The notes under the pieces: generated by a model | Databases searched by the model: none | What the model was told of the DNA's origin: nothing | What the model saw: the letters and a program-made list of their open reading frames with translations, nothing else | Assembly: GCA_963727525.1 (NCBI GenBank) | Contig: CAVSGO010000007.1 | Location: 1,152,001 to 1,216,000 of the forward strand | DNA: 64,000 nt | Direction of reading: 5' to 3' | Source: an uncultured bacterium | Lineage (GTDB): Bacteria > Krumholzibacteriota > Krumholzibacteriia > LZORAL124-64-63 | Position numbers and translations under genes: made by a program | Part shown: positions 6,583 to 29,976 of the stretch, piece by piece | Layout of the letters: each line of letters begins with the position of its first letter | Numbering within the stretch: position 1 is the first letter of the stretch

Positions 6583-6611
6583 GTCAGTCGAGACACGCGA
6601 AGCGCGCCGGA

Positions 6612-8300
<1,689 letters not shown>

Positions 8301-8316
8301 TCAGCGCAAGTCGGGT

Positions 8317-8604: not shown

Positions 8605-8645
8605 TGCCTGCCTCCTCGATCTGGGGTGAATGCGGGACACTGCCG

Positions 8646-8672
8646 CTAGCAGTCTCACCGCGTGATTGCTAA
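8646..8672 (-). promoter_or_regulatory. CIRCE element (HrcA operator)
   Basis: Minus strand reads TTAGCAATC-N9-GACTGCTAG versus consensus TTAGCACTC-N9-GAGTGCTAA, upstream of groES. Confidence 0.85.
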
Positions 8673-8680
8673 GCGGGCGG

Positions 8681-8708
8681 AATATAGTGGCCATACACCC
8701 TTCCGCAA
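8681..8708 (-). promoter_or_regulatory. putative sigma70-type promoter of groES-groEL
   Basis: TTGCGG-N16-TATATT immediately upstream of the CIRCE. Confidence 0.55.
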
Positions 8709-8868
8709 GGCGGAATTTCGCGTTATCGCGGCAGGATATGTCAGCGGCTGCCATCCTGACAGCGCAGTCATTCATGATGTTCCATGATTTGATGTGATGT
8801 GCTGATATGAGAGCCGGCCCAAAAAGAGGGCCGGACCCGGAGCCGGGGTGCTGGGCGCTGCCAGCGGG

Positions 8869-9450
8869 TCAGGAGCCGACGATCGTGATCGTCTCCTCCT
8901 TGAGGAGCTGGCGGTCGAGATAGATGCGCAGCAGGTACTCTCCCGTCTCGCGATGCTTCGCGCGCGAGATGTCGAAGATCGATTCCAGCATGAACGACGG
9001 CGCCTTCACGTGCTGAAGCTCGTGCCGGGAGTGATGTAGGTCGACCGCCTTCTTCCACGCGATGTCGATGTCGTACCCGCCGCTGTCGGCCGGCGTGACG
9101 GCGACCTCGGCGTAGCGGCGATACAGTTCGCGACCGTCGGGGCGGATCCAGACGAGGTGGGCCGAGTACAGCCGATCCGTACGCACGTCATGGAACGTCA
9201 CACGCGCGCGCACCCGACTCGTCTTCTTGATGCGGAACTCGAGGTCCTTGTCGCGCAGCCAGTGCTTCTTCGTGTAGCGGCGGGAGAAGGTGGTCGTGAT
9301 GTGGAACTGGTCGGCGGGCGCTTTCTCGCCGGCGGCCAGCGCCTGCTCATGGGCCGCCTGCTGCTGGGCCTCGCGAGTGTCGCAGCCACCAAGGGCCACC
9401 GTCAATAACATGAGCGCGAGCGTGATCATTCCGATGCGCCAGGATACCAT
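8869..9450 (-). CDS. basic, beta-rich putative lipoprotein
   Basis: GGAGG then ATG 9450; hydrophobic leader ending LGGC (lipobox-like); Arg/Lys/His-rich body; no family recognised. Confidence 0.7.
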   Translation of the reverse strand: MVSWRIGMITLALMLLTVALGGCDTREAQQQAAHEQALAAGEKAPADQFHITTTFSRRYTKKHWLRDKDLEFRIKKTSRVRARVTFHDVRTDRLYSAHLVWIRPDGRELYRRYAEVAVTPADSGGYDIDIAWKKAVDLHHSRHELQHVKAPSFMLESIFDISRAKHRETGEYLLRIYLDRQLLKEETITIVGS

Positions 9451-9543
9451 GGTGCCTCCAGCTGTCCGCGATCTGCACGAGCGCAGAGGCGGCCGGGCGC
9501 GAGCCCGGCCGCCGCCTGTGGTCACAGTGGCACGGGGCCACCG

Positions 9544-12500
9544 TTATTTCAAGAGCAGCATCTTGCGCGTGAGCTGCCCCGCGTCGCTGGTCAAGCGGTA
9601 GAAGTACAATCCGCTGGCCACCAGGCCGCCTTGGTCGTTCTGCCCCTGCCACGTCACCTCGTGGGTGCCCGGCGCCTGCAGTCCATGCACGAGCGTGCGC
9701 ACGAGCTTGCCCTGGACATCGAAGATCTGCAACGAGATCTCCTGCGCCCGCGGCACCGCATACGTGATGGTGGTGCGCGGGTTGAACGGGTTCGGGTGAT
9801 TCTGGTGCAGCCCCACGGCGAGCGGGATCTCCGCGTCCACGCCCGTGGAGATGTCGAAGGTGACGTCACCATCGGCCGTGTCCACGGCCTGATGCTGCGC
9901 GGCGTCGCGCACGGTCACGCGGAAGCGGCCGGTGTTCAGCCCCGGCTGCCCCGCGAAGTGCTCGTTCCACACGAAGCTGTAGCTGCCGGCAAAGGCGCCT
10001 TCCGCCACCGGGTAGATGTCGCTGCCGACCACGAAGGCGATCTCCGCATCGACCACGCCGATGTCGTCCGCCGCGTTCCACGTCACATTGACCGGCGTGC
10101 TCGTGGAGAAGGTCTGCCCTCCGTTGGGGTAGGTCAGCGCCACCGTGGGCGGCGTCTGGTCGGCGATGAGAACGTTCGCGTCGAGCGACAGGTCGTCGAC
10201 CAGGGCCTCGACGATCGAACCGGAGCCCGTGTCCTGGGCGATGAAGCGCAGGCGGACGTTGGGCGTCATGGCGATGTAGTCCTCGAGCACGAAGCTCTGC
10301 TGCACCCAGCTGCGGTTGCTCGTGGTGGTGTTCTCGAGCGTGACCCACGACGAGCCGTCGTCGGTGGCCTGGACAACCCAGGCGTCCTCGCCTGGCGCGT
10401 TGCCCGTGTCGTTGCTGAACCAGCGCCAGTAGCTGACGGTGGCGCCCGCATAAGCCGAGAGGTCATAGACCGGGCTGTAGAGCGTCGTCGCCCCGTTGTC
10501 GACATCGTCGCCGCCCTCCACGGCACCCTCGGAATCCTGGCCGGTCACCCAGCAGAGCGTGCCAGGCGTCGGGGTGTGGTCGTCGCTCGGCACGAGGATC
10601 TCGCCGCCGGCCGACACGTAGACGGTATTGGGATCGACACGAGTCCAGATGCCCGTGGTCGCGGTGTCGCCGCCGCCCACGTTGACCTGCCAGCCGGTGT
10701 CGGTTTCCATGGCGTCGTCGAGAATGTGCGTGACGTCGGCCACCTGGAACGAATACACCGGCCAGGGCGCGCCGACTGGATCGGCCGAATCGTTGCCCAC
10801 CACGTCGGCCGCGGTGAGCCAGTACTGCACCCGGGTGCCGACCGGCTGGCCCGGAATCTCCCCGTGCACCAGGCCGCTCGGCGGGTCAACCACGGTGAGC
10901 GGAACCTCGAACGGTCCGCCGTTCGTGGACGACGTGTAATACAGGTGCCGCGAAGCCACGCCGGTGACGTCGGTGATGTTGCTTTCCACGACGTACGGAC
11001 CCGCCGTGTCGGTGGTGTTGCCCAGCATCGTCGTGTTCGCGATGTACGGACCTCGGATGTCGACGAGATTGAAATCCGCCACCGTGAGATGGTCCTCGGT
11101 GATGACCACGTTGCGCGTGGTGTCGGGCGCGAAGCTGTCGTGGTACACGGCCACGTCCCAGGTGCCCACCGGTACGCTGCCCTCGTAGTGGCCGCTCGCA
11201 TCGGACGCGATCTGGCGGCCGGCGCCGACGACCGTCACCAGTGCGCCCTCGATCGGCGCGCCGCCGCCCGAGGCGTTCGTGATCGCGCCACCCAGGCTGC
11301 CCTGGATCTGCGGCACGATGGGCACGATCCGGATCGCGCGCCCGGCCGCTACGGTCGCGGCGCCGCCGGCGTAGTGATTGCCATACGCATAGGTGAGGCC
11401 GTCGGTGCGGTCCTCGTTCTGGATGCCGACGGTGAAGTACGTCGACTCGTCACCATAGATCGACACGCTGTTGTAGAGGATCTCGATGGGGCCGTCGCCC
11501 GTCTCGGTCGCATGGTAGGCGGGATCGTAGAGGATGATCTGGAAGGTGTTGTTGCCGCTGTATCCGCCGCCGGTCTCGGCCCGCCAGCCCGTCCACTGCA
11601 CGATGAATCGATGCTGAGCCGTGTCGTTGTACGTGTGGACGGTTCCGTTGGCGAGATCGTCCCAGAACCCACAGATCATGTTGCCGGGGCCGCCGTCGCT
11701 CGGCAGGTACCAGTTGCGGTACAACCGCTGGTAGGTGTGGCCGAACGCGAGCCAGCCGTTGGTGCAGATCGACACCTGCGTCTGCGGCTGGCCGTAGAGC
11801 TCGAAGGTGAACGGCAGCGCGAAGGTGCCGGTGTCGTCGTCGTAGGACGAGTTGTCCGACAGGCCCGTGTTCTGGCCGATCGCGGAGATGTCCATCCAGT
11901 CGTAAACCGGCGCATTGGCATCGGAGTCGGTGTTGTCGAACGCGTAGTAGCCGTATGCGTCGGGACCGGCCGGATCGCCGGCGACCGCCGTGCCGATCAC
12001 CTTCTGGAACTCCAGCGTGCTGGTTCCACCCTCGGCGAACTGCAGCGTGAGCGTGAAGTTCGCCAGATGGCCCGGATAGCAGTCGGAGGAGATACTCACG
12101 GCGAAGGGGTCACTCTGGCTTACCTGTTGCCCGATCGGCAAGGCGCCGAACGTGCCGGTGTCGTCCGTGATCGTCACCCAGTTGCTCGTGGTGGACAGAG
12201 TCGCCGTGGCCCCGCTCGAGGCCAGATTGCCCGTGTTGACGAGGTCGCTCGTCACGTTGCCCGTTTCTCCCGGGTCCATGGTGCCGCCAGGCCCACTGTA
12301 ATTCACGCGGCTGAGGCTGCCGCGCGGACCGGTGACGAGCACGTCGACAAGGCTGGTCCAGGTCTGGGCGCCGCTGCTGGCATCCAGCCGCAGCGAGATG
12401 GTCTGGCCGCCCGGAGCATCGGCGTCGAGGCTCACCGCGTACGCCCCCTGACTCCAGGCCGATGCGCCGCCTGCAATCGTCCCGAACGCCTGCGTGCCCG

Positions 12501-14667
12501 TGGTGACGTGCACATAGGGCAACGGACTGCTGAGCGTCGCCGTGACGCTGCCCAGCCCGTTGCTCCCGTGGTTGGCGAGCTGAATCGTGAGATCCAGCGC
12601 CTCGCCGGGATTCGGCACGTCGTCACCGTTGCCGCTCGCCTCGCTCAACTGCAGCGCGCTGTAGTCGAGCGATGCGCTCACGTTGCCGATCGTCGCGGAT
12701 CCGAGGAACGGCTTGAGGTTGTGCTTGGTCACCGTGACCTGCAGCGTGCCGTCGGCGACGCCCGCCACCGACAGCACCGCCTGGCCGGCCTGGTCGGTGT
12801 ACGCCGTGGTCTGAACGTTCCCGGCCTGGTAGACGGTCACCATCGCGTCGGCCACCGGTATGCCGCCCACCATCACCGTGACGGGGATGGCATTGGCGCC
12901 ACTGGACAGGGTCGCCGGATAGCTGACCGTGGCCGCGACGGGCACGCCCGTGTAGATCTCGGTCGCGGGATCACCCATCAGGTTGTTCCACGTCGACCAG
13001 ATCGTGACGTTGCTCGGTTCGTTGACGATGAAATTCTTGTAGAGCGCAAGCTTGCCGCGGGTCAGGGCGGGACCCACGCGGTAGTCGCCCGTGTTCAAGA
13101 CGCCGTTGCACACGCCAAGGAAGATGCAGTTGTTGTAACGCGTGTGGGTATGGATGGTCGAGGTCCCGATCGCCGCGACACCGCCACCGCCGGTGTTGCG
13201 CAGGAAAGCCTCGCTCTGCGAGGTCTCGGATAGGAACGACCCCGTGCCACAGGTCATGATGACGGCGAATGGCAACTGGCGGCCGTTGGACAGGGAGTTG
13301 ATGTAGGAATTGGAGAATCCACTCATACCCCACCAGCCGCGGTACGTGAAGATCGACTCGCCCTGGTTGATCGTGTTGAACATCTGCGTCGTGAAATCAC
13401 CGCTGAAGATGGTGTCGATGCGCGTGTATTCGAGGCTCTGCAGCGACTCCTTCACGAACTGCTGGACCCAGACGGTGCTGTAGCCGGAGTTGCCGGGATC
13501 GCCCGTCAAGCCTGCCGTGGTGAACCAGCTCTGATCGCTGAGATCGGGATTGGTCTCATACTGTACGACCTTGTTCACCACGTTCGTCAGCTCCGCTGCG
13601 CTAATCACCGACAGGCGACCGATGTGGACATCCGACAGCACGTCGCCACCCTCGAGCAGGGTGTATTCGTGATCGCCCTCGCCGGAAGCGCCGGAGAGGT
13701 TCTCCTGCCAGGTCGGGATCGAGACGGAACCGGACGCGTCGCCCACCAGCGCGACGAATTCGAGGGGCGGATCGACGTTGTTGTAAATCGACTGGAGGTA
13801 GGACTTGATTGCCGTGTTCGAGGTGCCCGTCTGTGCCGTGGTCGCCAGCAGCACGTGATAGCCCTGACGGCGGCGCCAATCCAGAAGCGGCTGCGCGGCC
13901 GCCGTCACGGACGCGTTATCGGGGCAGATCATCAGGTAGGTCCCCGGTCCGACCATCGTATCGGCGTCGCGGACATAGCCGATGATCTCCTGCTCGTATA
14001 TGCGCGCAAACGATTCCGGGATGCGATGGTGCGCAATCACCGGGTCGTTGCGGGTGTCGCGACCGGCGAACGTCACGTCGACCGTCAGCTTGTGCGCCAC
14101 GGCGATGGCGCCGGTGCTCGGATCGTAGCTGACCGGTGCAAAGGTGACTGGCACGACGCGCAGGCCGTGCATCAGCGCGGGCTCCCCGAGGGCGACCGTG
14201 GCCTCGGACCGCGGCGCCGCCGCATACTGCGTCAGGTCGAGATGCAACGGGGTGTCCGCCTGGAAGGCGTCGCGCAGGGGCAAGTTGGGCGCGATGGCCA
14301 TCGGTGCCAAGGGCGTCATCTCCTTGTCGACCACGCGCAGGCGAGCACCGACGCCCGCCGGCAGAGCCACCAGGCGCGTGATGGTGGGCAGGGCGGCCTG
14401 GCCGACCTGCCCGCTGACACCGCCATCGGCCAGGGCGAGGGCCTGATAGGTACGACCGTCGATCGTCATGTCCGTGACGTCGAGGCTCGGGACGGTCAGT
14501 TCCAGAGTGAATCCATCCAGGCGCTCGGCGAGCACCTTGACGGCGGCGTCCCCCGTATCTCCCTGCGGCGACAACGATAGCGATCGTGTCGCGTCGTCAG
14601 CGGCCCAGGCCGGGGTAACGGCCACGACCAGCGTGAGGATGATCACGGCCCACTTTTGCCAGCGCAT
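9544..14667 (-). CDS. gingipain-like C25 family multidomain protein with propeptide, Ig-like modules and FlgD/T9SS-like C-terminal domain
   Basis: Signal peptide from ATG 14667 (GGAGG upstream); propeptide-like GQAALPTITRLVALP; C25 features LLDWRRRQG, LVGD, DVHIGRLS, LPFAVIMTCGTGSF, NLMGDPA; C-terminal NHPNPFNP...WQGQND.G..VASGLYFYRL...KMLLLK. Confidence 0.88.
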   Translation of the reverse strand: MRWQKWAVIILTLVVAVTPAWAADDATRSLSLSPQGDTGDAAVKVLAERLDGFTLELTVPSLDVTDMTIDGRTYQALALADGGVSGQVGQAALPTITRLVALPAGVGARLRVVDKEMTPLAPMAIAPNLPLRDAFQADTPLHLDLTQYAAAPRSEATVALGEPALMHGLRVVPVTFAPVSYDPSTGAIAVAHKLTVDVTFAGRDTRNDPVIAHHRIPESFARIYEQEIIGYVRDADTMVGPGTYLMICPDNASVTAAAQPLLDWRRRQGYHVLLATTAQTGTSNTAIKSYLQSIYNNVDPPLEFVALVGDASGSVSIPTWQENLSGASGEGDHEYTLLEGGDVLSDVHIGRLSVISAAELTNVVNKVVQYETNPDLSDQSWFTTAGLTGDPGNSGYSTVWVQQFVKESLQSLEYTRIDTIFSGDFTTQMFNTINQGESIFTYRGWWGMSGFSNSYINSLSNGRQLPFAVIMTCGTGSFLSETSQSEAFLRNTGGGGVAAIGTSTIHTHTRYNNCIFLGVCNGVLNTGDYRVGPALTRGKLALYKNFIVNEPSNVTIWSTWNNLMGDPATEIYTGVPVAATVSYPATLSSGANAIPVTVMVGGIPVADAMVTVYQAGNVQTTAYTDQAGQAVLSVAGVADGTLQVTVTKHNLKPFLGSATIGNVSASLDYSALQLSEASGNGDDVPNPGEALDLTIQLANHGSNGLGSVTATLSSPLPYVHVTTGTQAFGTIAGGASAWSQGAYAVSLDADAPGGQTISLRLDASSGAQTWTSLVDVLVTGPRGSLSRVNYSGPGGTMDPGETGNVTSDLVNTGNLASSGATATLSTTSNWVTITDDTGTFGALPIGQQVSQSDPFAVSISSDCYPGHLANFTLTLQFAEGGTSTLEFQKVIGTAVAGDPAGPDAYGYYAFDNTDSDANAPVYDWMDISAIGQNTGLSDNSSYDDDTGTFALPFTFELYGQPQTQVSICTNGWLAFGHTYQRLYRNWYLPSDGGPGNMICGFWDDLANGTVHTYNDTAQHRFIVQWTGWRAETGGGYSGNNTFQIILYDPAYHATETGDGPIEILYNSVSIYGDESTYFTVGIQNEDRTDGLTYAYGNHYAGGAATVAAGRAIRIVPIVPQIQGSLGGAITNASGGGAPIEGALVTVVGAGRQIASDASGHYEGSVPVGTWDVAVYHDSFAPDTTRNVVITEDHLTVADFNLVDIRGPYIANTTMLGNTTDTAGPYVVESNITDVTGVASRHLYYTSSTNGGPFEVPLTVVDPPSGLVHGEIPGQPVGTRVQYWLTAADVVGNDSADPVGAPWPVYSFQVADVTHILDDAMETDTGWQVNVGGGDTATTGIWTRVDPNTVYVSAGGEILVPSDDHTPTPGTLCWVTGQDSEGAVEGGDDVDNGATTLYSPVYDLSAYAGATVSYWRWFSNDTGNAPGEDAWVVQATDDGSSWVTLENTTTSNRSWVQQSFVLEDYIAMTPNVRLRFIAQDTGSGSIVEALVDDLSLDANVLIADQTPPTVALTYPNGGQTFSTSTPVNVTWNAADDIGVVDAEIAFVVGSDIYPVAEGAFAGSYSFVWNEHFAGQPGLNTGRFRVTVRDAAQHQAVDTADGDVTFDISTGVDAEIPLAVGLHQNHPNPFNPRTTITYAVPRAQEISLQIFDVQGKLVRTLVHGLQAPGTHEVTWQGQNDQGGLVASGLYFYRLTSDAGQLTRKMLLLK

Positions 14668-14749
14668 GCTTCTCGCCTCCATCTCGTTCAAGGGCACGCA
14701 GCCGCACGCTGCGGCGCGACGTCCGAGGTCGGTTGAGTTCTCGCATTTC

Positions 14750-14758
14750 ATTATAGCA
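14750..14758 (-). promoter_or_regulatory. extended -10 element for the C25 gene
   Basis: TGCTATAAT on the minus strand in an AT-rich intergenic region. Confidence 0.5.
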
Positions 14759-14896
14759 GATTGCATATTTTCAAGTACGTCCGTTTTCTTAACGATTCCG
14801 TGATTAATCCCGACAAATTGTCCTGTAGAGCGCGCATTCTGCAGGATTTGTCTCATAAATATGATTTTCGACCCATGGCGAGGGCATTCGGCGCCG

Positions 14897-14905
14897 TGCT
14901 ATACT
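14897..14905 (+). promoter_or_regulatory. extended -10 element for the beta-helix/C25/pgs operon
   Basis: TGCTATACT about 50 nt upstream of ATG 14955. Confidence 0.45.
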
Positions 14906-14954
14906 CGCCCGTACTGAAACACCGTAACCCGACGTATGCCGGAGGTTGTCGCCC

Positions 14955-16604
14955 ATGATCCGCGTTTTGACCCGACCCCTAGCCCTGCTCGTGCTTCTCG
15001 TCGCCGCCACGGCCACGGCCGGCGTGATCAACGTACCCGGCGACTACTCCCTGATCCAGGATGCCGTCATGGCCGCGGCGTCTGGCGACACGGTCCTCGT
15101 CGCCGCCGGGACCTACCACGATTGCACCCACGAGACGGAAGGGCCGGGCACCACCCCGGCCTGCGTCATCATGCGTTCGGGCGTGACGCTGCGGGGCGTG
15201 AGCCAGAGCGGCACCGTCATCGACGCCGAGGGCCTCGGCCGCGGCATCTTCGTGCAGAACGTGGCGAACTGCCGCATCGAGAACCTCACCGTCACCGGCG
15301 CCTTCGCCGACGTCTACGGGGCCGGCATCCTGGTACGCCGCGTCGGCGATACCGTCACCATGACGGACGTGACGATCGATCAGAACCTCGACGGCGGGAT
15401 CATCTGCACCAGCCACGCCGACCCGGTGCTGACCCGCGTCACGTTCACGCAGAACGTCGCCAAGCAGGGTGGTGGACTGTCGATTGAAGATACGAGTTCT
15501 GTCCAGGTCATCGACTGCATCGTCGACGACAACAGCGCCCCCTCGGCGGCGGGCGTGTTCGTGCGCAACCAGAGCGTGGCCACGCTCACCGGTTGCCAGA
15601 TCATCGACAACGTGGGCACAGCGCCCAACAGCAACTGCGGGGGCTTGTTCGTCAACGAGGCCGAGATCCACATGAGCGACTGCCTCGTCGCCGGCAACGT
15701 CAGTCTCGGCAACGGTGGCGGCATCGCCATGAGTGCCACTTCGGGCGAGATCGCCAATAGCGTGATCAGCGGCAATACCTGCAGTTCGCCCTTCACGAAG
15801 GGCGGCGGCCTCGCTTGTGAGCAGTCGTCGGTGACCCTGCGCAACCTGCTCATCGCGAACAACGCCGTCACCGGCCTGTCGGGCAAGGGCGGTGGCATAG
15901 ACGTGAGCTTCTCGCCGTCGCCGACGATCGAGCACTGCACGATCGTGGGCAACTCCTGCGAGGCCTCGGGCAGCGGCGGCGGCATCTCCTGCCAGCTCGG
16001 CGCCTCGCCGACGCTCACCAATTGCATCATCGCCGGCAGCCCCGTGGGCGAAGCGATGGTCTGCCTCATCGCCGCGAACCCCACGGTGACGGGTTGCGAC
16101 CTGTGGGGCAATGCCGGGGGCGACGCGATCTGCGGCACCGACGGCGGCTGCAACTTCTCGGCCGACCCCGTCTTCTGCGGTACGACCGGCCACGAGTACA
16201 ACATCCAGCCGGGCAGCCCCTGCGCGGCCGGCAACCATCCCGATGGCGGCGCCTGCGGTGCGAGTTACTGTGGAGCGTACGCCGTTGGCTGCGGCGACGT
16301 GGGTGTGGAGGATCTGCCGGACCCGGCCGGTCTCGTGCTGGGCAACGCGCCGAATCCGTTCAACCCACTGACCAGCATCTACTTCATCCTTGACGCGCCC
16401 GGCGACGCCGTGCTTGGTATCTACGACCTGCGTGGCCACGCGCTCCGCACCTTCCACTTCTCCCAGGTGCGCGCGGGTCAACGGCACGAGATCGTCTGGA
16501 ATGGCAAGGACGACGCCGGCCTGGACCTGCCTAGTGGTGTTTATCTCTACCGCCTGCAGGCAAACGGCCTGACCACCAGCAAGAGGATGAGTCTGATCCG
16601 ATGA
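14955..16604 (+). CDS. secreted right-handed parallel beta-helix protein with FlgD/T9SS-like C-terminal domain
   Basis: Signal peptide; VPGDYSLIQDA..GDTVLVAAGTY start; repeated GGG/N-ladder units; NFSADPVFC; C-terminal NAPNPFNP...WNGKDDAG..LPSGVYLYRL. Confidence 0.85.
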   Translation: MIRVLTRPLALLVLLVAATATAGVINVPGDYSLIQDAVMAAASGDTVLVAAGTYHDCTHETEGPGTTPACVIMRSGVTLRGVSQSGTVIDAEGLGRGIFVQNVANCRIENLTVTGAFADVYGAGILVRRVGDTVTMTDVTIDQNLDGGIICTSHADPVLTRVTFTQNVAKQGGGLSIEDTSSVQVIDCIVDDNSAPSAAGVFVRNQSVATLTGCQIIDNVGTAPNSNCGGLFVNEAEIHMSDCLVAGNVSLGNGGGIAMSATSGEIANSVISGNTCSSPFTKGGGLACEQSSVTLRNLLIANNAVTGLSGKGGGIDVSFSPSPTIEHCTIVGNSCEASGSGGGISCQLGASPTLTNCIIAGSPVGEAMVCLIAANPTVTGCDLWGNAGGDAICGTDGGCNFSADPVFCGTTGHEYNIQPGSPCAAGNHPDGGACGASYCGAYAVGCGDVGVEDLPDPAGLVLGNAPNPFNPLTSIYFILDAPGDAVLGIYDLRGHALRTFHFSQVRAGQRHEIVWNGKDDAGLDLPSGVYLYRLQANGLTTSKRMSLIR

Positions 16605-20407: not shown

Positions 20408-20412
20408 CGACC

Positions 20413-21585: not shown

Positions 21586-22058
21586 TGCTGTACCAAGCCA
21601 TCGGCCTGGGTCTCGTGGTCAGCCTCGTATTCTCCGAGATCCTCGGCCTCGCCGCCGGCGGCCTCGTGGTGCCGGGCTACATCGCGCTCTACCTCGACCA
21701 GCCGCTGCGCATCGCCGCGACGGTGCTCGCCGCCCTCGTGACCTTCGCATCGGTGAACCTGCTCGGACGCGTGATCCTTCTCTACGGCCGGCGCACGATG
21801 GTGTTCTGCGTGCTGGCGGGGTTCCTCTTCGGCTACCTCACGCGGTACCTGCTGGTCTTCAACGAAACGTTTGCTCTGGGCGTGGACACCGCGGTACTGC
21901 GCTCGATCGGCTACATCATCCCCGGCCTCATGGCCTACTGGATGATGCGGCAGGGTATCATCGAGACCCTGTGCACTCTCGCCATCGCGGCCTTCATCGT
22001 CCGCGTCGCTCTGGTCGTCGTCCATGGAGGCAGGCTCATTGAGCTGGCGCTTGGATAG
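21585..22058 (+). CDS. pgsC: poly-gamma-glutamate biosynthesis membrane protein
   Basis: Start overlaps the pgsB stop (TGATG). GLVVSLVFSE..GLAAGGLVVPGYIAL, LYGRR and IGYIIPGL..W..RQG match CapC/PgsC. Confidence 0.94.
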   Translation: MLYQAIGLGLVVSLVFSEILGLAAGGLVVPGYIALYLDQPLRIAATVLAALVTFASVNLLGRVILLYGRRTMVFCVLAGFLFGYLTRYLLVFNETFALGVDTAVLRSIGYIIPGLMAYWMMRQGIIETLCTLAIAAFIVRVALVVVHGGRLIELALG

Positions 22059-24045
22059 CCGTCGCAAGTGGGTTCTCGCGGGACTCGCCGCCCTCGCCAT
22101 CGCGCTGCAGGTGCTGCTGGACGTCACGCGCGCGCCGATGCGGCAGAGCAACTACGACCTCAAGCTTGCCGCCACCGAACGCGCGGCCGAGGCGTTCGGT
22201 GTCCTGCGCGACTACCGGCTGCACAAGGGTGCCGTGCTCGACATGCTGAACGATCCGGCCGGCACCGGACTGGTGGGACCCGAGTTCAGCCGCATCACCA
22301 ACGCCCGCGGCGACCACGCGTCCAAGTTGACGAGCCTGAATCCGAACTGGGCCGCCGTGATCGTCGATTTCTGCCGTGAAGCCGGACTCAAACGTGGCGA
22401 CCCCGTCGCGGTGGCCGTCTCGGGATCGTTCCCCGGACTGAACATCGCCGTGCTCTCCGCCCTCGAGACGCTGCGGCTACGGCCGGTGCTGCTCACATCC
22501 GTGGGTGCGTCCATGTGGGGTGCCAACGATCCCGATTTCACCTGGCTCGACATGGAGTCCATCCTGCACGAGGCCGGCATCTTCACCACCCGGACCGTGA
22601 TGGCCACCTACGGCGGCGGCAGCGACATGGGACGCGGCCTGAGTCCCGAGGGGCGGCGCCTGATCCGCGAGGCGGCGAAGCGCAACCACGTGGAGTTCCT
22701 CGAGCCGCGCAACATCGAGTACTCGATCGCCAAGCGCATGGCCGTGTACGAGGAGGAGGCGCGCGGTCGTCCTTACAAGCTCTACATCAACGTGGGCGGC
22801 GGCGTGGCCAGCCTGGGCAGCAGTCACAACGGAGTACTCGTACCCCACGGACTGACGCTCGATCTCGGCATGCACAACTTCCCGCGCAAGGGCACCATGA
22901 TCCTCTTCGGGGAGAAGGGTATTCCCGTGGTCCACATGCTCCAGATCAAGAGCCTGGCGAGGAAATTCGGCCTGCCGATCGCGCCGGATTACATGCCGGC
23001 GCCCGGCGAGGGCGAGATCTTCGTGCGCGATGCCTACCGCCTGCCGCTGGCTGCCGCGGTGCTGGCCGCCTACACGCTGCTGTGCGTGTTGATTCTCGCG
23101 CCCGAGGTCCGGCGCGGCATCTTCGACCGGCTTTCGCGGCCGCGCGGGGCGGCTTCGGCGGGATTGGTCTTCGTCATGCTGCTCGGAGCCTCGGCGGCCA
23201 CCGCGGCCACGAGCGGCTGGGTCCGGATCAAGACGTTGCACGCCCCGGACAAGACCTGCATCAATGTCGGCGGGCGCGAATACAGCTACGCCGTGTTCCG
23301 CCCCGAAAATGCGGCCACGTTTACCGTCACCGGCCCGCGGCAGCTCCGCGTCAGCAGCCGCTATCTCTTCAGCGAGGACGACCCGGCCAAGGTCCCCTAC
23401 ACCATGGTCGTCACGGTGGACGGGCAGGAACGCCTGCGCAAGACCCACACCGGGCGGCCGCACGGAGAGGTGCGCCTGTGCCGGCAGGCAGGCCGCGTGG
23501 GTACGCTGCGCAAGGCCACCCTCGATATCGGCCCAGGCAAGCACACCGTGCGGGTCACGGCGCTCACGTCCGGCAAGGGGCACGTGGCCGGCCGCGTATA
23601 CCGGCAGGTCAAGAACCGGCGCGTGCGCACGGTCCTCTACGCACCCGACGGCTACGACGACGTGCGCGAGCTGCAATTCGCCAGCGGCAGCCATTCCACG
23701 TATTACCATCTCACCGCCGATGCGCCCGTGCGATTCACGGTGGGAGGCCCGACCGACCTGCAGCTCTACGCACGCCTCGATTTCGACCACACGATGAACG
23801 GCAGCCAGACGTACGCCCTCGCGGTGCGCTGCGACGGGGAAGAGTGGAAGACCTTCGTCTTCGACAGTCGCAAGCTCGACACCGCGGTGTACGTGACGCA
23901 GCCGGACGTGCTGCCCGGCAGCCGCAACGACTTCAGGATCGCGGTGGCCCGTGGCCGCCATGTTTACGAGATCCGCTGCCTGCGGCCCGAACGGTGCGGG
24001 GTGGCGGTGCAGATCCGCATCCCGCGCACGGATCTGCAACACTAG
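22024..24045 (+). CDS. pgsW: poly-gamma-glutamate system protein PgsW with a ~300 aa C-terminal extension
   Basis: NDP..TGLVG.EFS.IT...G...SKLTS.NPNWAA, SGSFPGLNIA, SVGASMWGANDP, TYGGGSD.G and YINVGG motifs; follows pgsBC. Start may be TTG 22039. Confidence 0.85.
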   Translation: MEAGSLSWRLDSRRKWVLAGLAALAIALQVLLDVTRAPMRQSNYDLKLAATERAAEAFGVLRDYRLHKGAVLDMLNDPAGTGLVGPEFSRITNARGDHASKLTSLNPNWAAVIVDFCREAGLKRGDPVAVAVSGSFPGLNIAVLSALETLRLRPVLLTSVGASMWGANDPDFTWLDMESILHEAGIFTTRTVMATYGGGSDMGRGLSPEGRRLIREAAKRNHVEFLEPRNIEYSIAKRMAVYEEEARGRPYKLYINVGGGVASLGSSHNGVLVPHGLTLDLGMHNFPRKGTMILFGEKGIPVVHMLQIKSLARKFGLPIAPDYMPAPGEGEIFVRDAYRLPLAAAVLAAYTLLCVLILAPEVRRGIFDRLSRPRGAASAGLVFVMLLGASAATAATSGWVRIKTLHAPDKTCINVGGREYSYAVFRPENAATFTVTGPRQLRVSSRYLFSEDDPAKVPYTMVVTVDGQERLRKTHTGRPHGEVRLCRQAGRVGTLRKATLDIGPGKHTVRVTALTSGKGHVAGRVYRQVKNRRVRTVLYAPDGYDDVRELQFASGSHSTYYHLTADAPVRFTVGGPTDLQLYARLDFDHTMNGSQTYALAVRCDGEEWKTFVFDSRKLDTAVYVTQPDVLPGSRNDFRIAVARGRHVYEIRCLRPERCGVAVQIRIPRTDLQH

Positions 24046-24057
24046 GGTGGATGGCGC

Positions 24058-25575
24058 ATGAGACGGAAACGTACCAATCGCATCGTCGTAATGGGCCTCG
24101 TTGCAGCACTCCTGCCGGCCGCGATGGCCGCGGCCTACGTACCCGATCCGCTCGGCCTCACCTACGAGGTCGGCATCGGCGGGCGTCCGTACCTGCGCGT
24201 GGGCGCGGTGCCCGTGATGCTGGCGCTGCGGGGCCCGGGCACGTTCTACGGCTACGCCCGCACCACCTTCCTCCCCGGCGAGGCGGGCAAGAAGCAGGGC
24301 CGCCTCCAGGTGAGCGGTTTGCCGGGCGATCCGATCACGCTCCCGCTCACCTTCGAGCCGTCGACCGAGAGCGACTTCGACGACGGTCGCCCCGGCCAGG
24401 CGAGCGCCGGCGCGCGCTTCGAGGTGAAGGTGCCCGACGGCGCCTGGACGCTCGTGCTGCGCGGCGACGTGGACGCGCCCACCGACGGCGCCGACGAGAT
24501 CTTCGTGACGTTGTACTATGACGGCCCGCGCCAGACCTCGCGCAAGGGTACGGCCAGCGCCAAGTCGTCACCCTGGTCCTGGCACAACCGCGCCGGTCTC
24601 GAACTGATCTACGATGACAACATCCTCACGCAGAGTCCCGACGCGTTCATCATCTTCGAGAACAATTCCGATCCGGCGGCCTTCCGCATCCACAGTACGG
24701 ACGACCTGCTCGTGGTGCCGAGCGTCGATCTCGAGGTGCGGCGCAATCTCTTCGACTTCGGACAGACCCGCGTTCGCTTCCGGGTGAAGTACTGGCATTA
24801 CACTTACAACCCCATCAAGACGAACACGGATTTCGACTTCTACCTGCGCCAGTACTGGGGCCGAAAGACGTCGTTCGAACTCTACGTGAATCACGCGCCC
24901 GAGCAATACATCCGGCAGCTCAACGACTTCGCGCCGTTCCAGGATCCGGAAACGCCGACCGAATCCAAGGAATTCCGATTCACGCGCAACGTCGTGAATC
25001 TCACCTGGCGCCAGAGCGTCAGCCGGCGCGTCGCCACCAAGCTCTCGCTGGAGACCAACCGCCGCTATTACAACAAGCCGTTCATCGAGAACGACATCGA
25101 GGCCTGGGAACTGCGCGGCAATGTGCGCTTCCGCGCGACCCGCTGGCTCGATATCGACGTCGACTACGGCTGGGAAGACGCGGCCGGCCGCGGCTACGAC
25201 ACCGTGGGTGAGACCCCGGAAACCAGCGACGACGGCGATCCCAGCTACGAGCGCGACCTCTATCGCCTCGGCTTCGGCATCGACACCCCGTTCCTCGATC
25301 CGGTCGTCGACGGCCTCGACGTCGCCGGCCTCTTCATGGACTATTACTACACCACGAAGAAGCCCATCTTCGATGCCCCGTTCCAGAGGGGCCGGCGAGA
25401 CAAGTGGGGCAAGGTCTTCGTGACGCTGCACAAGCGACTGAACCGGCGGATCAGCCTCGACGTGGGCTTCACCTATTCCGAACGCGCCGTGGAGTCGCCG
25501 TGGTACGGCGACATCACCCTCGACAAGAACTACATCCAGCACCGTTACTCGGTCGGTGCCGACTACCGATTCTGA
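24058..25575 (+). CDS. putative outer-membrane beta-barrel protein with an N-terminal soluble domain
   Basis: Signal peptide; C-terminal ~330 aa of aromatic-rich amphipathic strands; ends in a BAM-type signal (SVGADYRF). Confidence 0.7.
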   Translation: MRRKRTNRIVVMGLVAALLPAAMAAAYVPDPLGLTYEVGIGGRPYLRVGAVPVMLALRGPGTFYGYARTTFLPGEAGKKQGRLQVSGLPGDPITLPLTFEPSTESDFDDGRPGQASAGARFEVKVPDGAWTLVLRGDVDAPTDGADEIFVTLYYDGPRQTSRKGTASAKSSPWSWHNRAGLELIYDDNILTQSPDAFIIFENNSDPAAFRIHSTDDLLVVPSVDLEVRRNLFDFGQTRVRFRVKYWHYTYNPIKTNTDFDFYLRQYWGRKTSFELYVNHAPEQYIRQLNDFAPFQDPETPTESKEFRFTRNVVNLTWRQSVSRRVATKLSLETNRRYYNKPFIENDIEAWELRGNVRFRATRWLDIDVDYGWEDAAGRGYDTVGETPETSDDGDPSYERDLYRLGFGIDTPFLDPVVDGLDVAGLFMDYYYTTKKPIFDAPFQRGRRDKWGKVFVTLHKRLNRRISLDVGFTYSERAVESPWYGDITLDKNYIQHRYSVGADYRF

Positions 25576-25587
25576 CAAGGAGCTGAC

Positions 25588-27975
25588 ATGTTGGCGACCT
25601 CGCGCACCCGCATTCTCGTGACCCTGGCGACCGCCGCCGTATTGCTCGCGGCCTGTGGCAAGCAGGACCTCTACGAACCGCCCGGCGCGCCCTACGAGGT
25701 GACGGGGCGCCTCCCGTTGCCGAGCGCCAGCCAGGCCGTGGCCGTCCTCGGGACCCATGCCTTCGTGGCGGGCGGTGAGGCGGGCCTGTATGGCGTCGAC
25801 TTCGGCAACCATGCCGCGCCGCAGCTCCTGTCGATGACCAATACCACCAAGTCGGCCGACGGCGTGAACGTGGTGCGCATCTACTCCGGCGGCCGGGTGC
25901 GCGACATCGCCCACGTGGTCGAGGGCACCGAGGGCATCACGTCGTATGATGTGACCGATCCTGCCAGCGTTTTCGACTTCCACACCGGCACCACGGCGGT
26001 CGTGGGCCAGAGCGCGTACGTCGCACAGACCGCCGACCCCGCCGCCGCCTACACCGTGTTCCTGGCCGAGGACTGGAAAGGCGTGCGCATCTTCGACTCC
26101 ATCCCGGCCGACCCCGGCATCCTGGCCTACAACGGCGTCTTCGTCGGCACCCTCGGCAAGGCCTATTCTATCGAGGTGCGCGACGGCTGGGGCTACGTGG
26201 CCGACGACGAGATGGGCCTGGTCGTGCTCGACCTGCGCGTGCTCGACCTCGATTCCGTGTCCATCGCGTCCTGGGCCGACACGCCGGGCAACGCGCGCGC
26301 CGTCGCGCTGTGGGGCGACTACGCCTTCGTCGCCGATGGGGTCGCGGGTCTTGCCGTGTTCCGCATCCACGAGGGCGACACGCCCGTGAAGGTGGCTCAA
26401 CTCGACCTCTCCGGCTTCAGCGAGGCCATCGCCCTGCGCGACGGCCTGATGGCGCTGTCGGCGAACAGTGCCGGCACCCATTTCGTGGACGTCCGCAATC
26501 CCGCGGCGCCCGTCTACCTGGGCACCATCCCGTCCGGATACGCCACCGGCGTGGCCTTCGCCGAGGACGGCACCTGCGTCATCTGCGACGAGGACGACGG
26601 CCTGCTCATCTGTACGGGCCACGGCCCGTTCCGGGATCTTACGGCGCCATCGCCCGTGACGACGCTCGCGGCCGCCCCGGCCGGCGCCTCCAGCATCCGT
26701 CTGTCGTGGGTCATGACGGGCGACGACCGCATGGTCGGCACCGCCAGCAACCTCGAGGTGCGGCGCAGCGACGCTCCCATCGTCGATGACACCACGTGGG
26801 AGGCCGCCACGCCGGTGGCCGGCGCGCCGGCGCCCGAGGCGCCGGGCACAGCGATGTCGCTCGTCGCCGATGGCCTCACCCCCGGCGTCACCTACCACTT
26901 CGCATTGCGCGTCACCGACGACGCGGGAAACGTCTCCGACCTCTCCAACGACGCCAGCACGGCGACGGCCGAGGGTATCATCCTGGTGAATCCCCAGGTG
27001 GACGTCGGCGGCGGCACGACGAGCGACACCTATACCTTCAGCGTGGAAGCCCTCTTCGAGGGCACGCTCACAGCCTCCGAGGTCGTGATCGACGGCACGC
27101 CGCACGCGATGACACTGGCGGACGGCTTCTACTCCTACGCCACCACGCTGGCTCCGGGTGTCCACTCGTATCACTTCCACTTCGCCGGCGACGGCGTGGG
27201 CGACGCGACCACCGAGGAGTTCGAAGGCCCGTATGTCGGCGAGATCGCGGTGACGCTCGGCAGCCCGGCCAGCGAGTCGGGACGCCGTGCTGACGAGGCT
27301 CGACACGTCGCGGTGTTCTCGCACGACGTGCAAGGTGGCACCTCCGAGGTGACTCAGGCCGAGTGGGATGCCGTCATGCCGGCCGGTTCCAACCCGTCGG
27401 AGTTCCCGGGCGCCGATCGCCCGGTCGACAGCGTCACCTGGTTCGACGCGATCATGTACTGCAACGCCCGGAGCACCGCTGACGGCACCACGCCGTGCTA
27501 CACGATCGACGCCGACAACCAGGTCACGTGGAATCGCGATGCCGATGGCTGGCGGTTGCCCACCGAGGCCGAATGGGAATACCTCTGCCGCGCCGGCACC
27601 ACCACTGCGTTTTATACGGGAGCGCTCACCGAGTTGTATTGCCGCCTCGATCCCGTGCTGGACGCGATCGGCTGGTACTGCGGCAATGCCGGCACCGGCA
27701 CGAGCACCGTCGCGCAGAAGCAGGCGAACGCCTGGGGCCTTTACGACACGTCCGGCAACGTGCGCGAGTGGTGCTGGGACTGGTACGGCGAGGCGCTGCC
27801 CGACGCGGCCCTCGACCCGGCCGGACCCGACACGGGCACGCAGCGCGTGTGCCGCGGCGGGAGCTGGTACTACAGCAGCCAGGATTGCCGCAGTGCGGCG
27901 CGCGGAACGTACTATCCCACGAGCCGCGACAACACCGTCGGCATGCGCGCGGTGCGCACCGTGTTCGAGAACTGA
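25588..27975 (+). CDS. lipoprotein with LVIVD repeats, FN3-like domain and FGE-sulfatase (SUMF1-fold) domain
   Basis: Lipobox LAAC; LVIVD-type repeats (YVADDEMGLVVLD, YAFVADGVAGLAVF, FVDVRNPAAP); GLTPGVTYHFALR; FGE-fold motifs EVTQ, RLPTEAEWEY, NAWGLYDTSGNVREW, RGGSW. Confidence 0.85.
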   Translation: MLATSRTRILVTLATAAVLLAACGKQDLYEPPGAPYEVTGRLPLPSASQAVAVLGTHAFVAGGEAGLYGVDFGNHAAPQLLSMTNTTKSADGVNVVRIYSGGRVRDIAHVVEGTEGITSYDVTDPASVFDFHTGTTAVVGQSAYVAQTADPAAAYTVFLAEDWKGVRIFDSIPADPGILAYNGVFVGTLGKAYSIEVRDGWGYVADDEMGLVVLDLRVLDLDSVSIASWADTPGNARAVALWGDYAFVADGVAGLAVFRIHEGDTPVKVAQLDLSGFSEAIALRDGLMALSANSAGTHFVDVRNPAAPVYLGTIPSGYATGVAFAEDGTCVICDEDDGLLICTGHGPFRDLTAPSPVTTLAAAPAGASSIRLSWVMTGDDRMVGTASNLEVRRSDAPIVDDTTWEAATPVAGAPAPEAPGTAMSLVADGLTPGVTYHFALRVTDDAGNVSDLSNDASTATAEGIILVNPQVDVGGGTTSDTYTFSVEALFEGTLTASEVVIDGTPHAMTLADGFYSYATTLAPGVHSYHFHFAGDGVGDATTEEFEGPYVGEIAVTLGSPASESGRRADEARHVAVFSHDVQGGTSEVTQAEWDAVMPAGSNPSEFPGADRPVDSVTWFDAIMYCNARSTADGTTPCYTIDADNQVTWNRDADGWRLPTEAEWEYLCRAGTTTAFYTGALTELYCRLDPVLDAIGWYCGNAGTGTSTVAQKQANAWGLYDTSGNVREWCWDWYGEALPDAALDPAGPDTGTQRVCRGGSWYYSSQDCRSAARGTYYPTSRDNTVGMRAVRTVFEN

Positions 27976-27986
27976 GGAACGGAGCC

Positions 27987-29201
27987 ATGGCCACCAAGAA
28001 GAGAAGCACAGCCGTCCGGGCGCGCATCGCCGCCGAGACCGCGGTCGTGGACGCCCCCGAGCTGCCACCCGGCGCCGAGATGGCCAAGATCCCGGGCAAG
28101 AAGCTGCGCTTCACGTTCATCGACGAGTTCCGCGGACTCATCGGCATCATGATGGCCCTCGGGCATGCGCAGGAGTACATGAACTCGGCCTGGCTGAGCT
28201 TCGACTACGTCGATCCGCTGTACCCGAACCTGCCGCAGTTCCTGATCCGCTACATGGGGTACCTGTGCGCGCCCGGGTTCCTCGTGATGAACGGCGCCAT
28301 GGTCTACTGGGCGTTCCGTGTGCGCGTGAAGAGGGGCGAATCGGTGGGCCGGGCGCGCTGGGATTTCATCCAGCGCGGTCTCTTTCTCATGGCGGTCCAG
28401 TGGATCTGGGTGAACGCGGCCTGGGGCGGATTCACCCGCCTGCGCCTGGATCACCTGGGGATCATCGCCACGATCGGCTTCTCGATGATCATCCTGGTGT
28501 GGATGGTGCACTGGGACTGGCGCTACCGCCTGCTCGTGACCATCGCGGGTTTCCTGATCCACCCGCTATTGCTTCGTATCCCTTACGACCAGAGTTCCTG
28601 GCTGCACTATCCGATGCAGTTCTTCGTGGACAGCGGAGAGTTCAATCTCTACCCGGTGATTCCCTGGTTCTCGCTGGCCTGTCTGGGCTCGGTCATGGCC
28701 CACTTCTGGTTCTCGGTCTGGGTCGACCGGCGCAAGCCCGATGAGCGCGCCATCAAATCGATGCTCATCGGTGTGCTCATGGTGGTGTTTGCGGTGGGCC
28801 TGCGCGACTGGGGCAACTCCTACTTCAACATCTTCCCCCACAACGGCTTCTTCACCTACAGCTTCTTCATGGTACAGAAGTATCCGCCGAGCCTGACGCA
28901 CCAGATCTGGTTCGGCGGCGCGGTGATCTTCATGGTGGGTCTCTTCGCCTGGATCGACAATCGCCTGCCGGTGCTGCGCCCTCTGGCCATCGTCGGCCGC
29001 GTGCCGCTCTTCTACTACTGCCTGCACATCCCGATCCTGGCCTTCGTCTTCCGGCGCCTGGCGTGGCTGCCGTACCGCAGCGGCGAGGTGGCCGAGAGCC
29101 TGTACACGTGGTTCGGTCTGCTGGCGGTGATGCTGCCGTTGGCATGGTGGTTCGGCGGTGTGAAGCGCAAGCACCGCAACTGGTTCGTCCGTATGATCTA
29201 G
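27987..29201 (+). CDS. DUF1624 / heparan-alpha-glucosaminide N-acetyltransferase-like polytopic membrane protein
   Basis: RFTFIDEFRGLIGIMMALGH motif, CAPGF, YPVIPW, KYPPSL, GRVPLFYY..H; many TM helices. Confidence 0.8.
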   Translation: MATKKRSTAVRARIAAETAVVDAPELPPGAEMAKIPGKKLRFTFIDEFRGLIGIMMALGHAQEYMNSAWLSFDYVDPLYPNLPQFLIRYMGYLCAPGFLVMNGAMVYWAFRVRVKRGESVGRARWDFIQRGLFLMAVQWIWVNAAWGGFTRLRLDHLGIIATIGFSMIILVWMVHWDWRYRLLVTIAGFLIHPLLLRIPYDQSSWLHYPMQFFVDSGEFNLYPVIPWFSLACLGSVMAHFWFSVWVDRRKPDERAIKSMLIGVLMVVFAVGLRDWGNSYFNIFPHNGFFTYSFFMVQKYPPSLTHQIWFGGAVIFMVGLFAWIDNRLPVLRPLAIVGRVPLFYYCLHIPILAFVFRRLAWLPYRSGEVAESLYTWFGLLAVMLPLAWWFGGVKRKHRNWFVRMI

Positions 29202-29214
29202 CGGGGAGGTCGGG

Positions 29215-29976
29215 ATGAAGACACGCAATCTCTTGCCGTTCTTGTTCATGATCGCTGGTGGTCTGGCCATGCTGGGCGCGGCCGGCGGCGACCTGATCAA
29301 GGATGGCGGCTTCGAGCACCTCAAGAAGAGTTCCGCCTTGCGGCGGGACGACAAGGGTCAGGACTGGTACGAGAGTCGCAAGGATGGCAAGGAGGGGCCG
29401 AAGCTGCTCATCCTCTCGAGCAAGGCCATCGCCGGCAACGCCACGCGCAAGGCCATGATCAAGGCCCACCCCGATCTCAACACGTATCTCACGCAGAAGC
29501 TCGCCACGCCGCAGACGGGCCGCTTCGCGCTGAGCTACGACGTGTGCGTCAAGGAGATCCTGCCTGACGACAACCACTCGGCATTCTGCTTCGTGGGCGC
29601 GAGCTACGATCGCAAGGGCGGGCCCTGTTCCACGGCCAAGGAGCGTTTCCTCTTCCTTGGATTCGAGAACTCCGCCACCGCGCCCGGCAAGCTCGCTCTT
29701 TTCTCCCGCGAGGGCGACAAGGACTGGCCGTCGCGCACGGTCCTGGCGCCCGAGCTCACGACCATGGCATGGCACCACATCGAGGCCCAGGTGGACGTGA
29801 AAGCGAGCAAGTACCGCGTGCGGGTCGACGGAGGCCCCTGGAGCAAGGACCTCAAGGCGTTCAAGGCCACGGGCGGGACGCCGCCGAAGCGCCTGACGCA
29901 CGTGTGCTTCGCCTCGTGGAACGACGGCGCCGGCACCTTCTATATCGACAACGTCTCCGTGGTCCCGACGCCCTAG
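29215..29976 (+). CDS. secreted Lys-rich beta-sandwich hypothetical protein
   Basis: GGAGG upstream; signal peptide; LIKDGGFE start and FYIDNVSV end resemble CBM/ConA-like folds. Confidence 0.7.
   Translation: MKTRNLLPFLFMIAGGLAMLGAAGGDLIKDGGFEHLKKSSALRRDDKGQDWYESRKDGKEGPKLLILSSKAIAGNATRKAMIKAHPDLNTYLTQKLATPQTGRFALSYDVCVKEILPDDNHSAFCFVGASYDRKGGPCSTAKERFLFLGFENSATAPGKLALFSREGDKDWPSRTVLAPELTTMAWHHIEAQVDVKASKYRVRVDGGPWSKDLKAFKATGGTPPKRLTHVCFASWNDGAGTFYIDNVSVVPTP

Follow-up and report, generated by a model that had tools for sequence, protein, structure and literature searches.

Gene content of the block

We analysed a 64-kb window (64,000 nucleotides of contig CAVSGO010000007.1, G+C ~68%) from an uncultured bacterium of the phylum Krumholzibacteriota. 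Employing open reading frame (ORF) calls and Pfam and NCBIfam profile scans of the window, we found that eleven genes fill positions 8869-29976 (21 kb). Among them are pgsB, pgsC and pgsW, predicted to serve a poly-gamma-glutamate (PGA) system, and two genes for proteins of the gingipain family C25. On balance, this block is probably one copy of a conserved PGA system of double-membraned (diderm) bacteria of the Fibrobacterota-Chlorobiota-Bacteroidota (FCB) group, with the C25 domains acting on PGA at the cell surface. Nine of the genes form a plus-strand series (14955-29976) with intergenic distances of -4, 5, -1, -35, 12, 12, 11 and 13 nt. The positions and spacing of the eleven genes had been claimed in an initial annotation of the same DNA and were borne out by the ORF and profile calls.

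The first operon gene (14955-16604) encodes a right-handed beta-helix protein (Beta_helix 88 bits; NosD). It is followed by a C25 gene, C25a (16601-20407; Peptidase_C25 214 bits; NIDO), which lies directly upstream of pgsB. A second, larger C25 protein, C25b, is encoded on the minus strand (9544-14856, likely start 14667), divergently from the operon, and matches Propeptide_C25, Peptidase_C25 (189 bits), CarboxypepD_reg and Big_7; it contains Ig-like modules. All three proteins score above the cut-off (23 bits) of TIGR04183, the C-terminal domain (CTD) of type IX secretion system (T9SS) cargo: C25b with 33.5 bits, C25a with 28.2 bits and the beta-helix protein with 23.1 bits. The genome encodes a PorU above its model cut-off and at least 50 frames with such a CTD, and no match to GldK/PorK in it reached the cut-off.

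The gene pgsB (20413-21585) encodes an ATP-dependent poly-gamma-glutamate ligase (TIGR04012, 403.2 bits, cut-off 222.7; Mur_ligase_M), and pgsC (21585-22058), which begins on the last nucleotide of the pgsB stop, encodes the membrane subunit of the synthase (TIGR04011, 118.1 bits, cut-off 96.45; Caps_synth_CapC, 112 bits; four hydrophobic segments). Both products are orthologues above the equivalog cut-offs, and membership of these families suggests that they polymerise glutamate. Downstream follow a fusion of pgsW with a second gene, here called X, and genes for a probable outer-membrane barrel, a lipoprotein and a membrane acyltransferase. Profile scans of the block proteins gave no match to PGA_cap (PF09587, PgsA/CapA) or to GGT (PF01019, CapD), in agreement with the earlier statement that the block holds neither capA nor capD.

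Conservation of the C25-pgsB neighbourhood

Two sets of loci were compared; they share some contigs and are not independent of each other. The class-level set comprised 40 relatives, 19 of which bear TIGR04332 (PgsW); 19 loci were fetched from 18 of these 19 genomes. The cross-phylum set was collected with a PgsW profile from species-representative genomes, and the best 80 of 505 encoding stretches were kept. A C25 gene was counted as adjacent when it shared the strand of pgsB and its end was <1.2 kb upstream of it, and a locus was counted as informative when at least 4.5 kb upstream of pgsB was available. In what follows, loci and genomes carry L and G numbers where they have to be told apart, G000 being the genome that holds the window.

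The C25-type cluster was found in 15 of the 19 class-level loci, and C25a stood directly before pgsB in every one of the 14 loci with upstream sequence. A divergent C25b beyond the beta-helix gene was present in 11 of the 19, and it also occurs in most Krumholzibacteriota loci. Across phyla, C25 was adjacent upstream of pgsB in 54/60 informative loci and present anywhere in the locus in 57/60. The partner genes recurred as well among the best 80 loci: X in 71/73, the barrel in 70/73, LVIVD in 59/61 and DUF1624 in 45/52. Locus titles named Krumholzibacteriota, Latescibacterota, Bacteroidales, Lentimicrobiaceae, Ignavibacteriaceae and Melioribacteraceae, and the closest loci in species-representative genomes were labelled Candidatus Krumholzibacteriota or Krumholzibacteriia. 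Clusters of Bacteroidota and Ignavibacteriota encode a single C25 protein of ~1260-1290 aa with a T9SS CTD and have no beta-helix gene; a beta-helix gene at this position was seen in Krumholzibacteriota loci only.

Public labels and gene content did not always look consistent. The title 'uncultured Fibrobacteraceae bacterium' is borne by several contigs (L049, L051, L052, L061, L064, L065 and others) whose cluster is of the Krumholzibacteriota type (PgsW 59-67% identical), and L066 is titled Latescibacterota.

C25 and the cluster also occur together at the level of whole genomes. With C25a as the query (E<=1e-50), matches were obtained in 16 of the 40 relatives, and these were exactly the 16 genomes with the C25-type cluster (16/16 versus 0/24); none was found in the 21 genomes without TIGR04332 or in the three with a divergent pgsW. 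Paralogue-level C25 matches (190-260 bits) were likewise missing from cluster-less genomes, so the whole branch of C25 proteins without the catalytic His (described below) travels with the cluster. In a replicate centred on Ignavibacteriota (61 genomes), 16 genomes had both genes, one had pgsW only, one had C25 only and 43 had neither (16/17 versus 1/44); in both single-gene genomes the gene that was found lay near a contig end. These counts are given without statistics because related genomes are not independent samples.

The genome itself contains 14 C25 genes in 4.66 Mb, of which 8 keep the catalytic His and 6 are without it. Since two of the 14 flank the operon and the arrangement recurs in other phyla, the association within the block exceeds what chance would give. 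The initial annotation had proposed, as a test that could refute it, that C25 and the barrel should be kept next to pgsBCW in relatives; run on the loci above, this association held in three phyla, and the genome-wide co-occurrence agrees with it. That C25 belongs functionally to the PGA system is well supported by these results.

A GGT gene occupies the C25 position in a sister cluster

A second type of cluster, GGT-pgsB-pgsC-pgsW, was found in the same phylum (L038, 7382-12023; L120, L121, L122, L123, L124 and L125). Its PgsB, PgsC and PgsW belong to the same families as those of the C25 type, from which it differs by a GGT gene in the C25 slot. In 7/7 of these loci with upstream sequence, pgsB is directly preceded by a GGT gene in the same orientation, the one in L123 being cut by the contig end; the GGT protein of L038 has 670 aa and matches PF01019 with 463 bits. 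X, the barrel, LVIVD, DUF1624 and C25 are all missing from the type-2 loci. Conversely, the 80 C25-type loci were free of GGT matches in their flanks (0/80).

That C25 and GGT, two unrelated families, alternate at one operon position is the strongest indication obtained here that PGA is handled by the C25 protein. In Bacillus anthracis, PGA is processed and anchored by CapD, a member of the GGT family. The initial annotation had supposed that C25 proteins substitute for CapD. A GGT/CapD-like gene in the same slot of the sister type, together with the lack of GGT beside the 80 C25-type clusters, speaks for this part of the proposal; the loss of the catalytic His, the GGT genes elsewhere in the genome and the existence of variants without C25 speak against it. 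As it stands, a CapD role of C25 is plausible and has the backing of slot sharing with GGT.

Several loci depart from the two types. In G154 both cluster types lie on one contig, ~17 kb apart (C26:21129-22031 and C26:38345-39250). In L038 and L122 the type-2 cluster is followed by a gene for a 456-aa T9SS cargo protein without a known family. A third variant, L037 (G034, 5841-13008), has a patatin-like gene upstream of pgsB and X-like and barrel-like genes after pgsW, with neither C25 nor GGT.

The active site of the cluster-linked C25 proteins

A model of C25a residues 96-640 (pLDDT 88, pTM 0.89) matched RgpB at TM 0.88-0.91, including the immunoglobulin (Ig)-like domain. Gingipains RgpB and Kgp (family C25, clan CD) share with the linked proteins the fold, the column of the catalytic Cys, predicted delivery as T9SS cargo and, in C25b, Propeptide_C25. 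As indicated by alignment to RgpB, the catalytic Cys (RgpB Cys244) is kept in both C25a and C25b, whereas the catalytic His (RgpB His211) is replaced by Trp in both (Trp376 in C25a). In C25b, 'YRGW' replaces the 'YTGH' of RgpB, and Asp163 is not kept.

Cys410, Arg374 and His451-Thr452 (residues numbered as in C25a) do not vary among 29 cluster-linked C25 sequences drawn from three phyla. At the former His position, Krumholzibacteriota have Trp or Tyr, and Bacteroidota and Ignavibacteriota have Glu or Gln. Counted along the alignment, Arg374 falls on RgpB Thr209, and the new His-Thr pair falls in the Pro286-Met288 segment. C25 paralogues that contain the catalytic His have neither Arg374 nor the His-Thr pair, and they are not linked to the cluster. 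Passages of PMC9559808 describe Cys244/His211 as the catalytic dyad of RgpB, Asp163 as the residue that confers Arg specificity, Thr209 as forming the bottom of the S1 pocket, and Met288 as lining that pocket beside Cys244. From these correspondences we infer that the linked C25 proteins have a charge-reversed pocket suited to a carboxylate and possibly a relocated general base.

In a quick tree, the linked C25 proteins formed their own well-supported clades. Its three His-less C25 groups may or may not share one origin: support at the deep forks is below 95, and long-branched His-containing paralogues are placed between the groups. Four further His-less paralogues are encoded away from the cluster in the same genome (G000 C3:301084, C7:107689, C6:175747 and C7:2298448). 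They show YRG followed by Tyr or Phe and an HTR.NN motif, and they group with C25b in the quick tree.

The initial annotation had also drawn an analogy to PorU, the C25-family transpeptidase (C-terminal signal peptidase and sortase) of the T9SS. This analogy proved weak. C25a and C25b scored 56.7 and 84.5 bits against the PorU model NF033707 (cut-off 420), and the fold match of C25a to PorU was poor (TMq 0.32). A true PorU, which keeps the 'GHG' motif, is encoded at another locus of the genome (G000:C7:790047-793442, 436.5 bits). What the linked proteins share with PorU is membership of the C25 family, a predicted place as surface enzymes of T9SS organisms, and the precedent of transpeptidation within the family (PMC8545088).

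PgsW, X and the predicted envelope components

Here and in all related loci, pgsW sits right after pgsC. In the window it is part of a gene for a 673-aa protein (22024-24045), which matches TIGR04332 with 316 bits over residues 18-324 (cut-off 100) and continues for ~290 aa beyond. In the PgsW part (22024-23190), two transmembrane helices enclose an alpha/beta domain of ~300 aa, which is predicted to be periplasmic by the positive-inside rule applied to the hydrophobic segments. The X part (23191-24045) consists of a hydrophobic anchor and two beta-sandwich domains. The initial annotation had called this gene an extended pgsW. A long pgsW is indeed present, and its extra part corresponds to a conserved downstream gene that is fused to it here: most relatives encode X in an ORF of its own, which in Bacteroidota and Ignavibacteriota has a signal peptide, and many Krumholzibacteriota also have it separate.

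Searches of Pfam and of PDB sequences gave no match for PgsW or X, and the Atlas search returned only unnamed clusters for X. A model of the fusion (pLDDT 89) showed the X half as all-beta with two domains. In the fold search with this model, low-TM beta-sandwich matches to the X half dominated and the alpha/beta domain of PgsW remained unplaced. The matches to X were weak (TM <=0.26) and were to tandem carbohydrate-binding module (CBM) and BcsB-type sandwiches. Based on the model, X may be a periplasmic beta-sandwich protein.

The next gene (24058-25575) encodes a protein of 505 aa, barrel505, which is a probable outer-membrane beta-barrel by its signal peptide and its C-terminus, ...GADYRF. 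It gave a weak match to the Autotransporter beta-domain, and the Atlas search gave a sub-threshold lead to BBP2_2 porins (0.89), which is taken as a lead only. It is followed by a gene for a lipoprotein (25588-27975) whose LVIVD part (46 bits) is a beta-propeller region, with an FGE-sulfatase-like part (121 bits) at the C-terminus and the lipobox LLAAC; its match to the GldK/PorK model is weak (64 bits, cut-off 350). The FGE part was present in 37/61 loci, none of them from Bacteroidota or Ignavibacteriota, where the LVIVD protein comes without it. The gene at 27987-29201 encodes a DUF1624/HGSNAT-like polytopic membrane acyltransferase (HGSNAT_cat 38 bits, cut-off 22); in relatives this gene is sometimes on the opposite strand.

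A proposed PGA system and alternative explanations

Taken together, the genes suggest the following route. PgsB and PgsC would polymerise glutamate at the inner membrane, the families being recognised with confidence and the activity expected from them. PgsW, anchored in the membrane with a large periplasmic domain, may take the place of PgsA. The tandem beta-sandwich protein X, fused to PgsW here, may guide the chain through the periplasm, and barrel505 and the LVIVD lipoprotein may form the exit in the outer membrane. The DUF1624 acyltransferase could modify the polymer or its end. The T9SS would deliver C25a, C25b and the beta-helix protein, which carry its sorting domains, to the cell surface. 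There the C25 pocket, with its conserved Cys, an invariant Arg that would suit a carboxylate and an invariant His at a new position, might cleave gamma-glutamyl bonds and so either trim and release PGA or transfer it to a surface acceptor, the job of CapD and Ggt in Bacillus. The linked C25 proteins may be catalytic, and they may anchor the polymer rather than trim it. In its most specific form, a gingipain branch rebuilt as a gamma-glutamyl-bond enzyme, placed on the surface by the T9SS, would cut nascent PGA and transfer it to a surface acceptor as a non-homologous replacement for CapD; we put this forward tentatively, as a possibility that is rather unlikely in all its details.

Several observations weigh against a C25-assisted PGA system of this kind. 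All the carriers seen are uncultured metagenome-assembled genomes (MAGs), known from their genes alone. The canonical His is missing in all linked C25 proteins, which are thus possibly inactive, and the nearness of His451 and Arg374 to Cys410 is predicted from the alignment. With an isoelectric point (pI) of 4.3-4.6, the lipoprotein and the C25 proteins are highly acidic, so that general binding of polyanions is not favoured. Four Eisenbacteria-like loci (L075, L081, L082 and L095) have the rest of the cluster with no C25 seen, although the L082 contig begins inside pgsB and a C25 gene may lie upstream there. In L111 and L116 the C25 gene is downstream, and in L088 C25 genes come after X with no barrel seen. 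The C25 sequence beside an Ignavibacteriota-type cluster at G223:C36:3993-5060 has 12 stop codons in the match and looks decayed, while pgsW on the same contig (9398-10321) is intact. Finally, two ordinary GGT genes elsewhere in the genome could process PGA.

An alternative that we regard as unlikely, though deserving attention, is that the linked C25 proteins are pseudo-proteases that bind PGA or another product of the cluster non-covalently and hold the capsule as surface receptors. The loss of the canonical His in all of them fits this explanation, as do the invariant pocket Arg, which would suit the binding of carboxylates, the T9SS sorting domains, and the presence of several C25 paralogues per genome, only in cluster-bearing genomes. 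However, the catalytic Cys is invariant in three phyla and a new invariant His-Thr pair stands beside the pocket, which is more easily explained by retained catalysis; moreover, the same slot is filled by a catalytic GGT in the sister cluster type.

Gingipain-type proteins are proteases, and the adhesin-like modules on the C25 proteins (CARDB, NPCBM_assoc, NIDO and Big_7), in a genome with 14 C25 genes and at least 50 T9SS CTD frames, would also be in keeping with ordinary secreted feeding proteases or adhesins. The link to the cluster would then be regulatory or protective, with PGA retaining or shielding proteins that do not act on it. We consider this improbable: the dyad His is missing, the paralogues that keep it are unlinked to the cluster, and near-perfect adjacency together with co-occurrence in two phyla would be unusual for a feeding enzyme.

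Still less probable is that the linked C25 proteins are a dedicated sortase that attaches particular T9SS cargo (the beta-helix protein, for example) by the C-terminus to PGA at its free amino end, in which case the polymer would be a protein anchor or decoration and not a capsule. PMC8545088 describes transpeptidation by the C25 member PorU onto anionic lipopolysaccharide (A-LPS), and the block has three genes for T9SS cargo. Yet C25a and C25b score far below the PorU cut-off in a genome with a true PorU, and the clusters of Bacteroidota and Ignavibacteriota lack the beta-helix gene. In cluster-less relatives, a query with the CTD-bearing C25a gave 61-301 first-look candidates, which we took as putative T9SS cargo; if they are, PGA is not the general anchor of such cargo, and that idea was set aside on this ground. 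That the adjacency of C25 and pgsBCW is incidental, a by-product of many C25 paralogues (14 in 4.66 Mb), is contradicted by its retention in 54/60 loci across phyla, by the two sets of co-occurrence counts and by the separate, well-supported clades of the linked proteins, and has very little left to recommend it.

Comparison with known systems

In Bacillus, PgsB and PgsC polymerise PGA, PgsA and PgsE aid its transport, and PgdS and Ggt degrade it; for B. subtilis, degradation by Ggt is stated in passages of the same source (PMC5751247). The block described here, in which a C25-assisted PGA system is the interpretation we prefer, shares with PgsBCA(E)/CapBCADE of Bacillus an operon in which the synthase genes pgsB and pgsC stand beside genes for a third component, anchored in the membrane, and for a putative processing enzyme of the polymer. 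Unlike the Bacillus operons, it has no PgsA/CapA domain or GGT, and PgsW would replace PgsA; it has additional predicted outer-membrane parts, a lipoprotein and an acyltransferase, as for a double-membraned cell; and its processing slot is taken by a gingipain-fold protein that the T9SS would deliver.

The operons for cellulose (Bcs), alginate (Alg) and poly-N-acetylglucosamine (PNAG; Pga) combine a synthase, a periplasmic beta-sandwich partner, an outer-membrane barrel and lipoprotein, a modifying acyltransferase and a polymer-cleaving enzyme. The operon logic predicted for the block, from the inner-membrane synthase through to a polymer-cleaving enzyme, would be the same as in such synthase-dependent secretion. 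The polymer here would be a polyamide instead of a polysaccharide, and no component is homologous by sequence; the likeness is architectural only.

Our literature searches, to which supplementary files and MAG annotation tables in supplements did not belong, turned up no publication about TIGR04332/PgsW, nor any that connects PGA to C25, gingipain, PorU or T9SS, or pgsB/capB to these phyla. A conserved PGA system of FCB diderms with a His-less, gingipain-fold T9SS cargo protein as an integral partner is therefore apparently undescribed in print. PGA biology rests almost wholly on Bacillus, and the literature searched held no description of how PGA passes the periplasm and outer membrane of a diderm cell or is retained there; the module names candidate parts for each of these steps. 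The module is widespread. A PgsW relative was encoded in 505 of 552 pattern-matched stretches of species-representative genomes, 2,686 of 8,000 candidates scored were PgsW relatives, and 73 of 208 genomes of this phylum have the family.

In this cluster, a gingipain branch whose active site has been remodelled connects PGA with the T9SS, and the alternation of C25 and GGT in one slot offers a ready comparative test. If C25 does work on gamma-glutamyl bonds, it would represent a new class of PGA-tailoring enzymes and extend clan CD peptidase folds to a new function; if it replaces CapD, the T9SS would be coupled to capsule anchoring. With PgsW, X, the barrel and the LVIVD lipoprotein, this would be the first trans-envelope pathway for PGA export and attachment in diderms.

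GGT and CapA-like genes elsewhere in the genome

The rest of the genome was searched for capA and capD, as the initial annotation had suggested. Besides the two GGT genes there is a T9SS-secreted protein with a CapA-like domain, and no link of GGT to the cluster was found. GGT is present in 37/41 genomes with or without the cluster, and the genomic GGTs were therefore rejected as the real CapD. The CapA-like protein (1009 aa, G000:C7:392654-395683), a T9SS cargo protein, is the sole strong PGA_cap match in the genome. Of the 16 relatives that carry the C25-type cluster, 13 have frames of ~850-1800 aa with the same split PGA_cap match; among the remaining 24, the PGA_cap matches listed were shorter or different frames.

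The block as a present/absent unit

The block is bordered on the left by groEL/groES (6612-8775, minus strand) and on the right by coaX/nadC/uvrB (29973-33561, minus strand). In two cluster-less relatives, G008 and G017, the order is groEL-groES-coaX-nadC-uvrB, with a gap of ~200-260 nt between groES and coaX (L126 of G008, 1717-3042; L127 of G017, 16288-17249). Judging from this empty site, 8869-29976 behaves as a single 21-kb unit that genomes either have or lack at one fixed position. The same groES-coaX site in G011 contains the cluster without C25b. Two other genomes, G009 and G006, have 2-3 kb of other DNA between groES and coaX.

Two peripheral members of the block lie at its ends. At the left end, lipo218 (8869-9525, likely start 9450, minus strand) encodes a small lipoprotein of 218 aa with the lipobox LGGC behind a hydrophobic stretch; a homologue was seen only in G011 (L032/L049), adjoining groES. 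At the right end, 29215-29976 (plus strand) encodes a secreted protein of 253 aa with a signal peptide and a pI of 9.3. It is relatively rich in Lys (9.1%, versus 0.8-3.6% in the other cluster proteins), and its homologues were found only in the closest relatives, L041 and L045. Searches of Pfam, NCBIfam and PDB sequences assigned neither protein to a family. Scans of 14000-30800 for sigma-70 promoters and terminators gave no signal exceeding that of shuffled sequence. For 16601-26600, neither a sequencing run nor an RNA data set containing it was listed. Just past groEL, outside the present/absent unit, the window encodes a GT4-family glycosyltransferase (5369-6523, minus strand).

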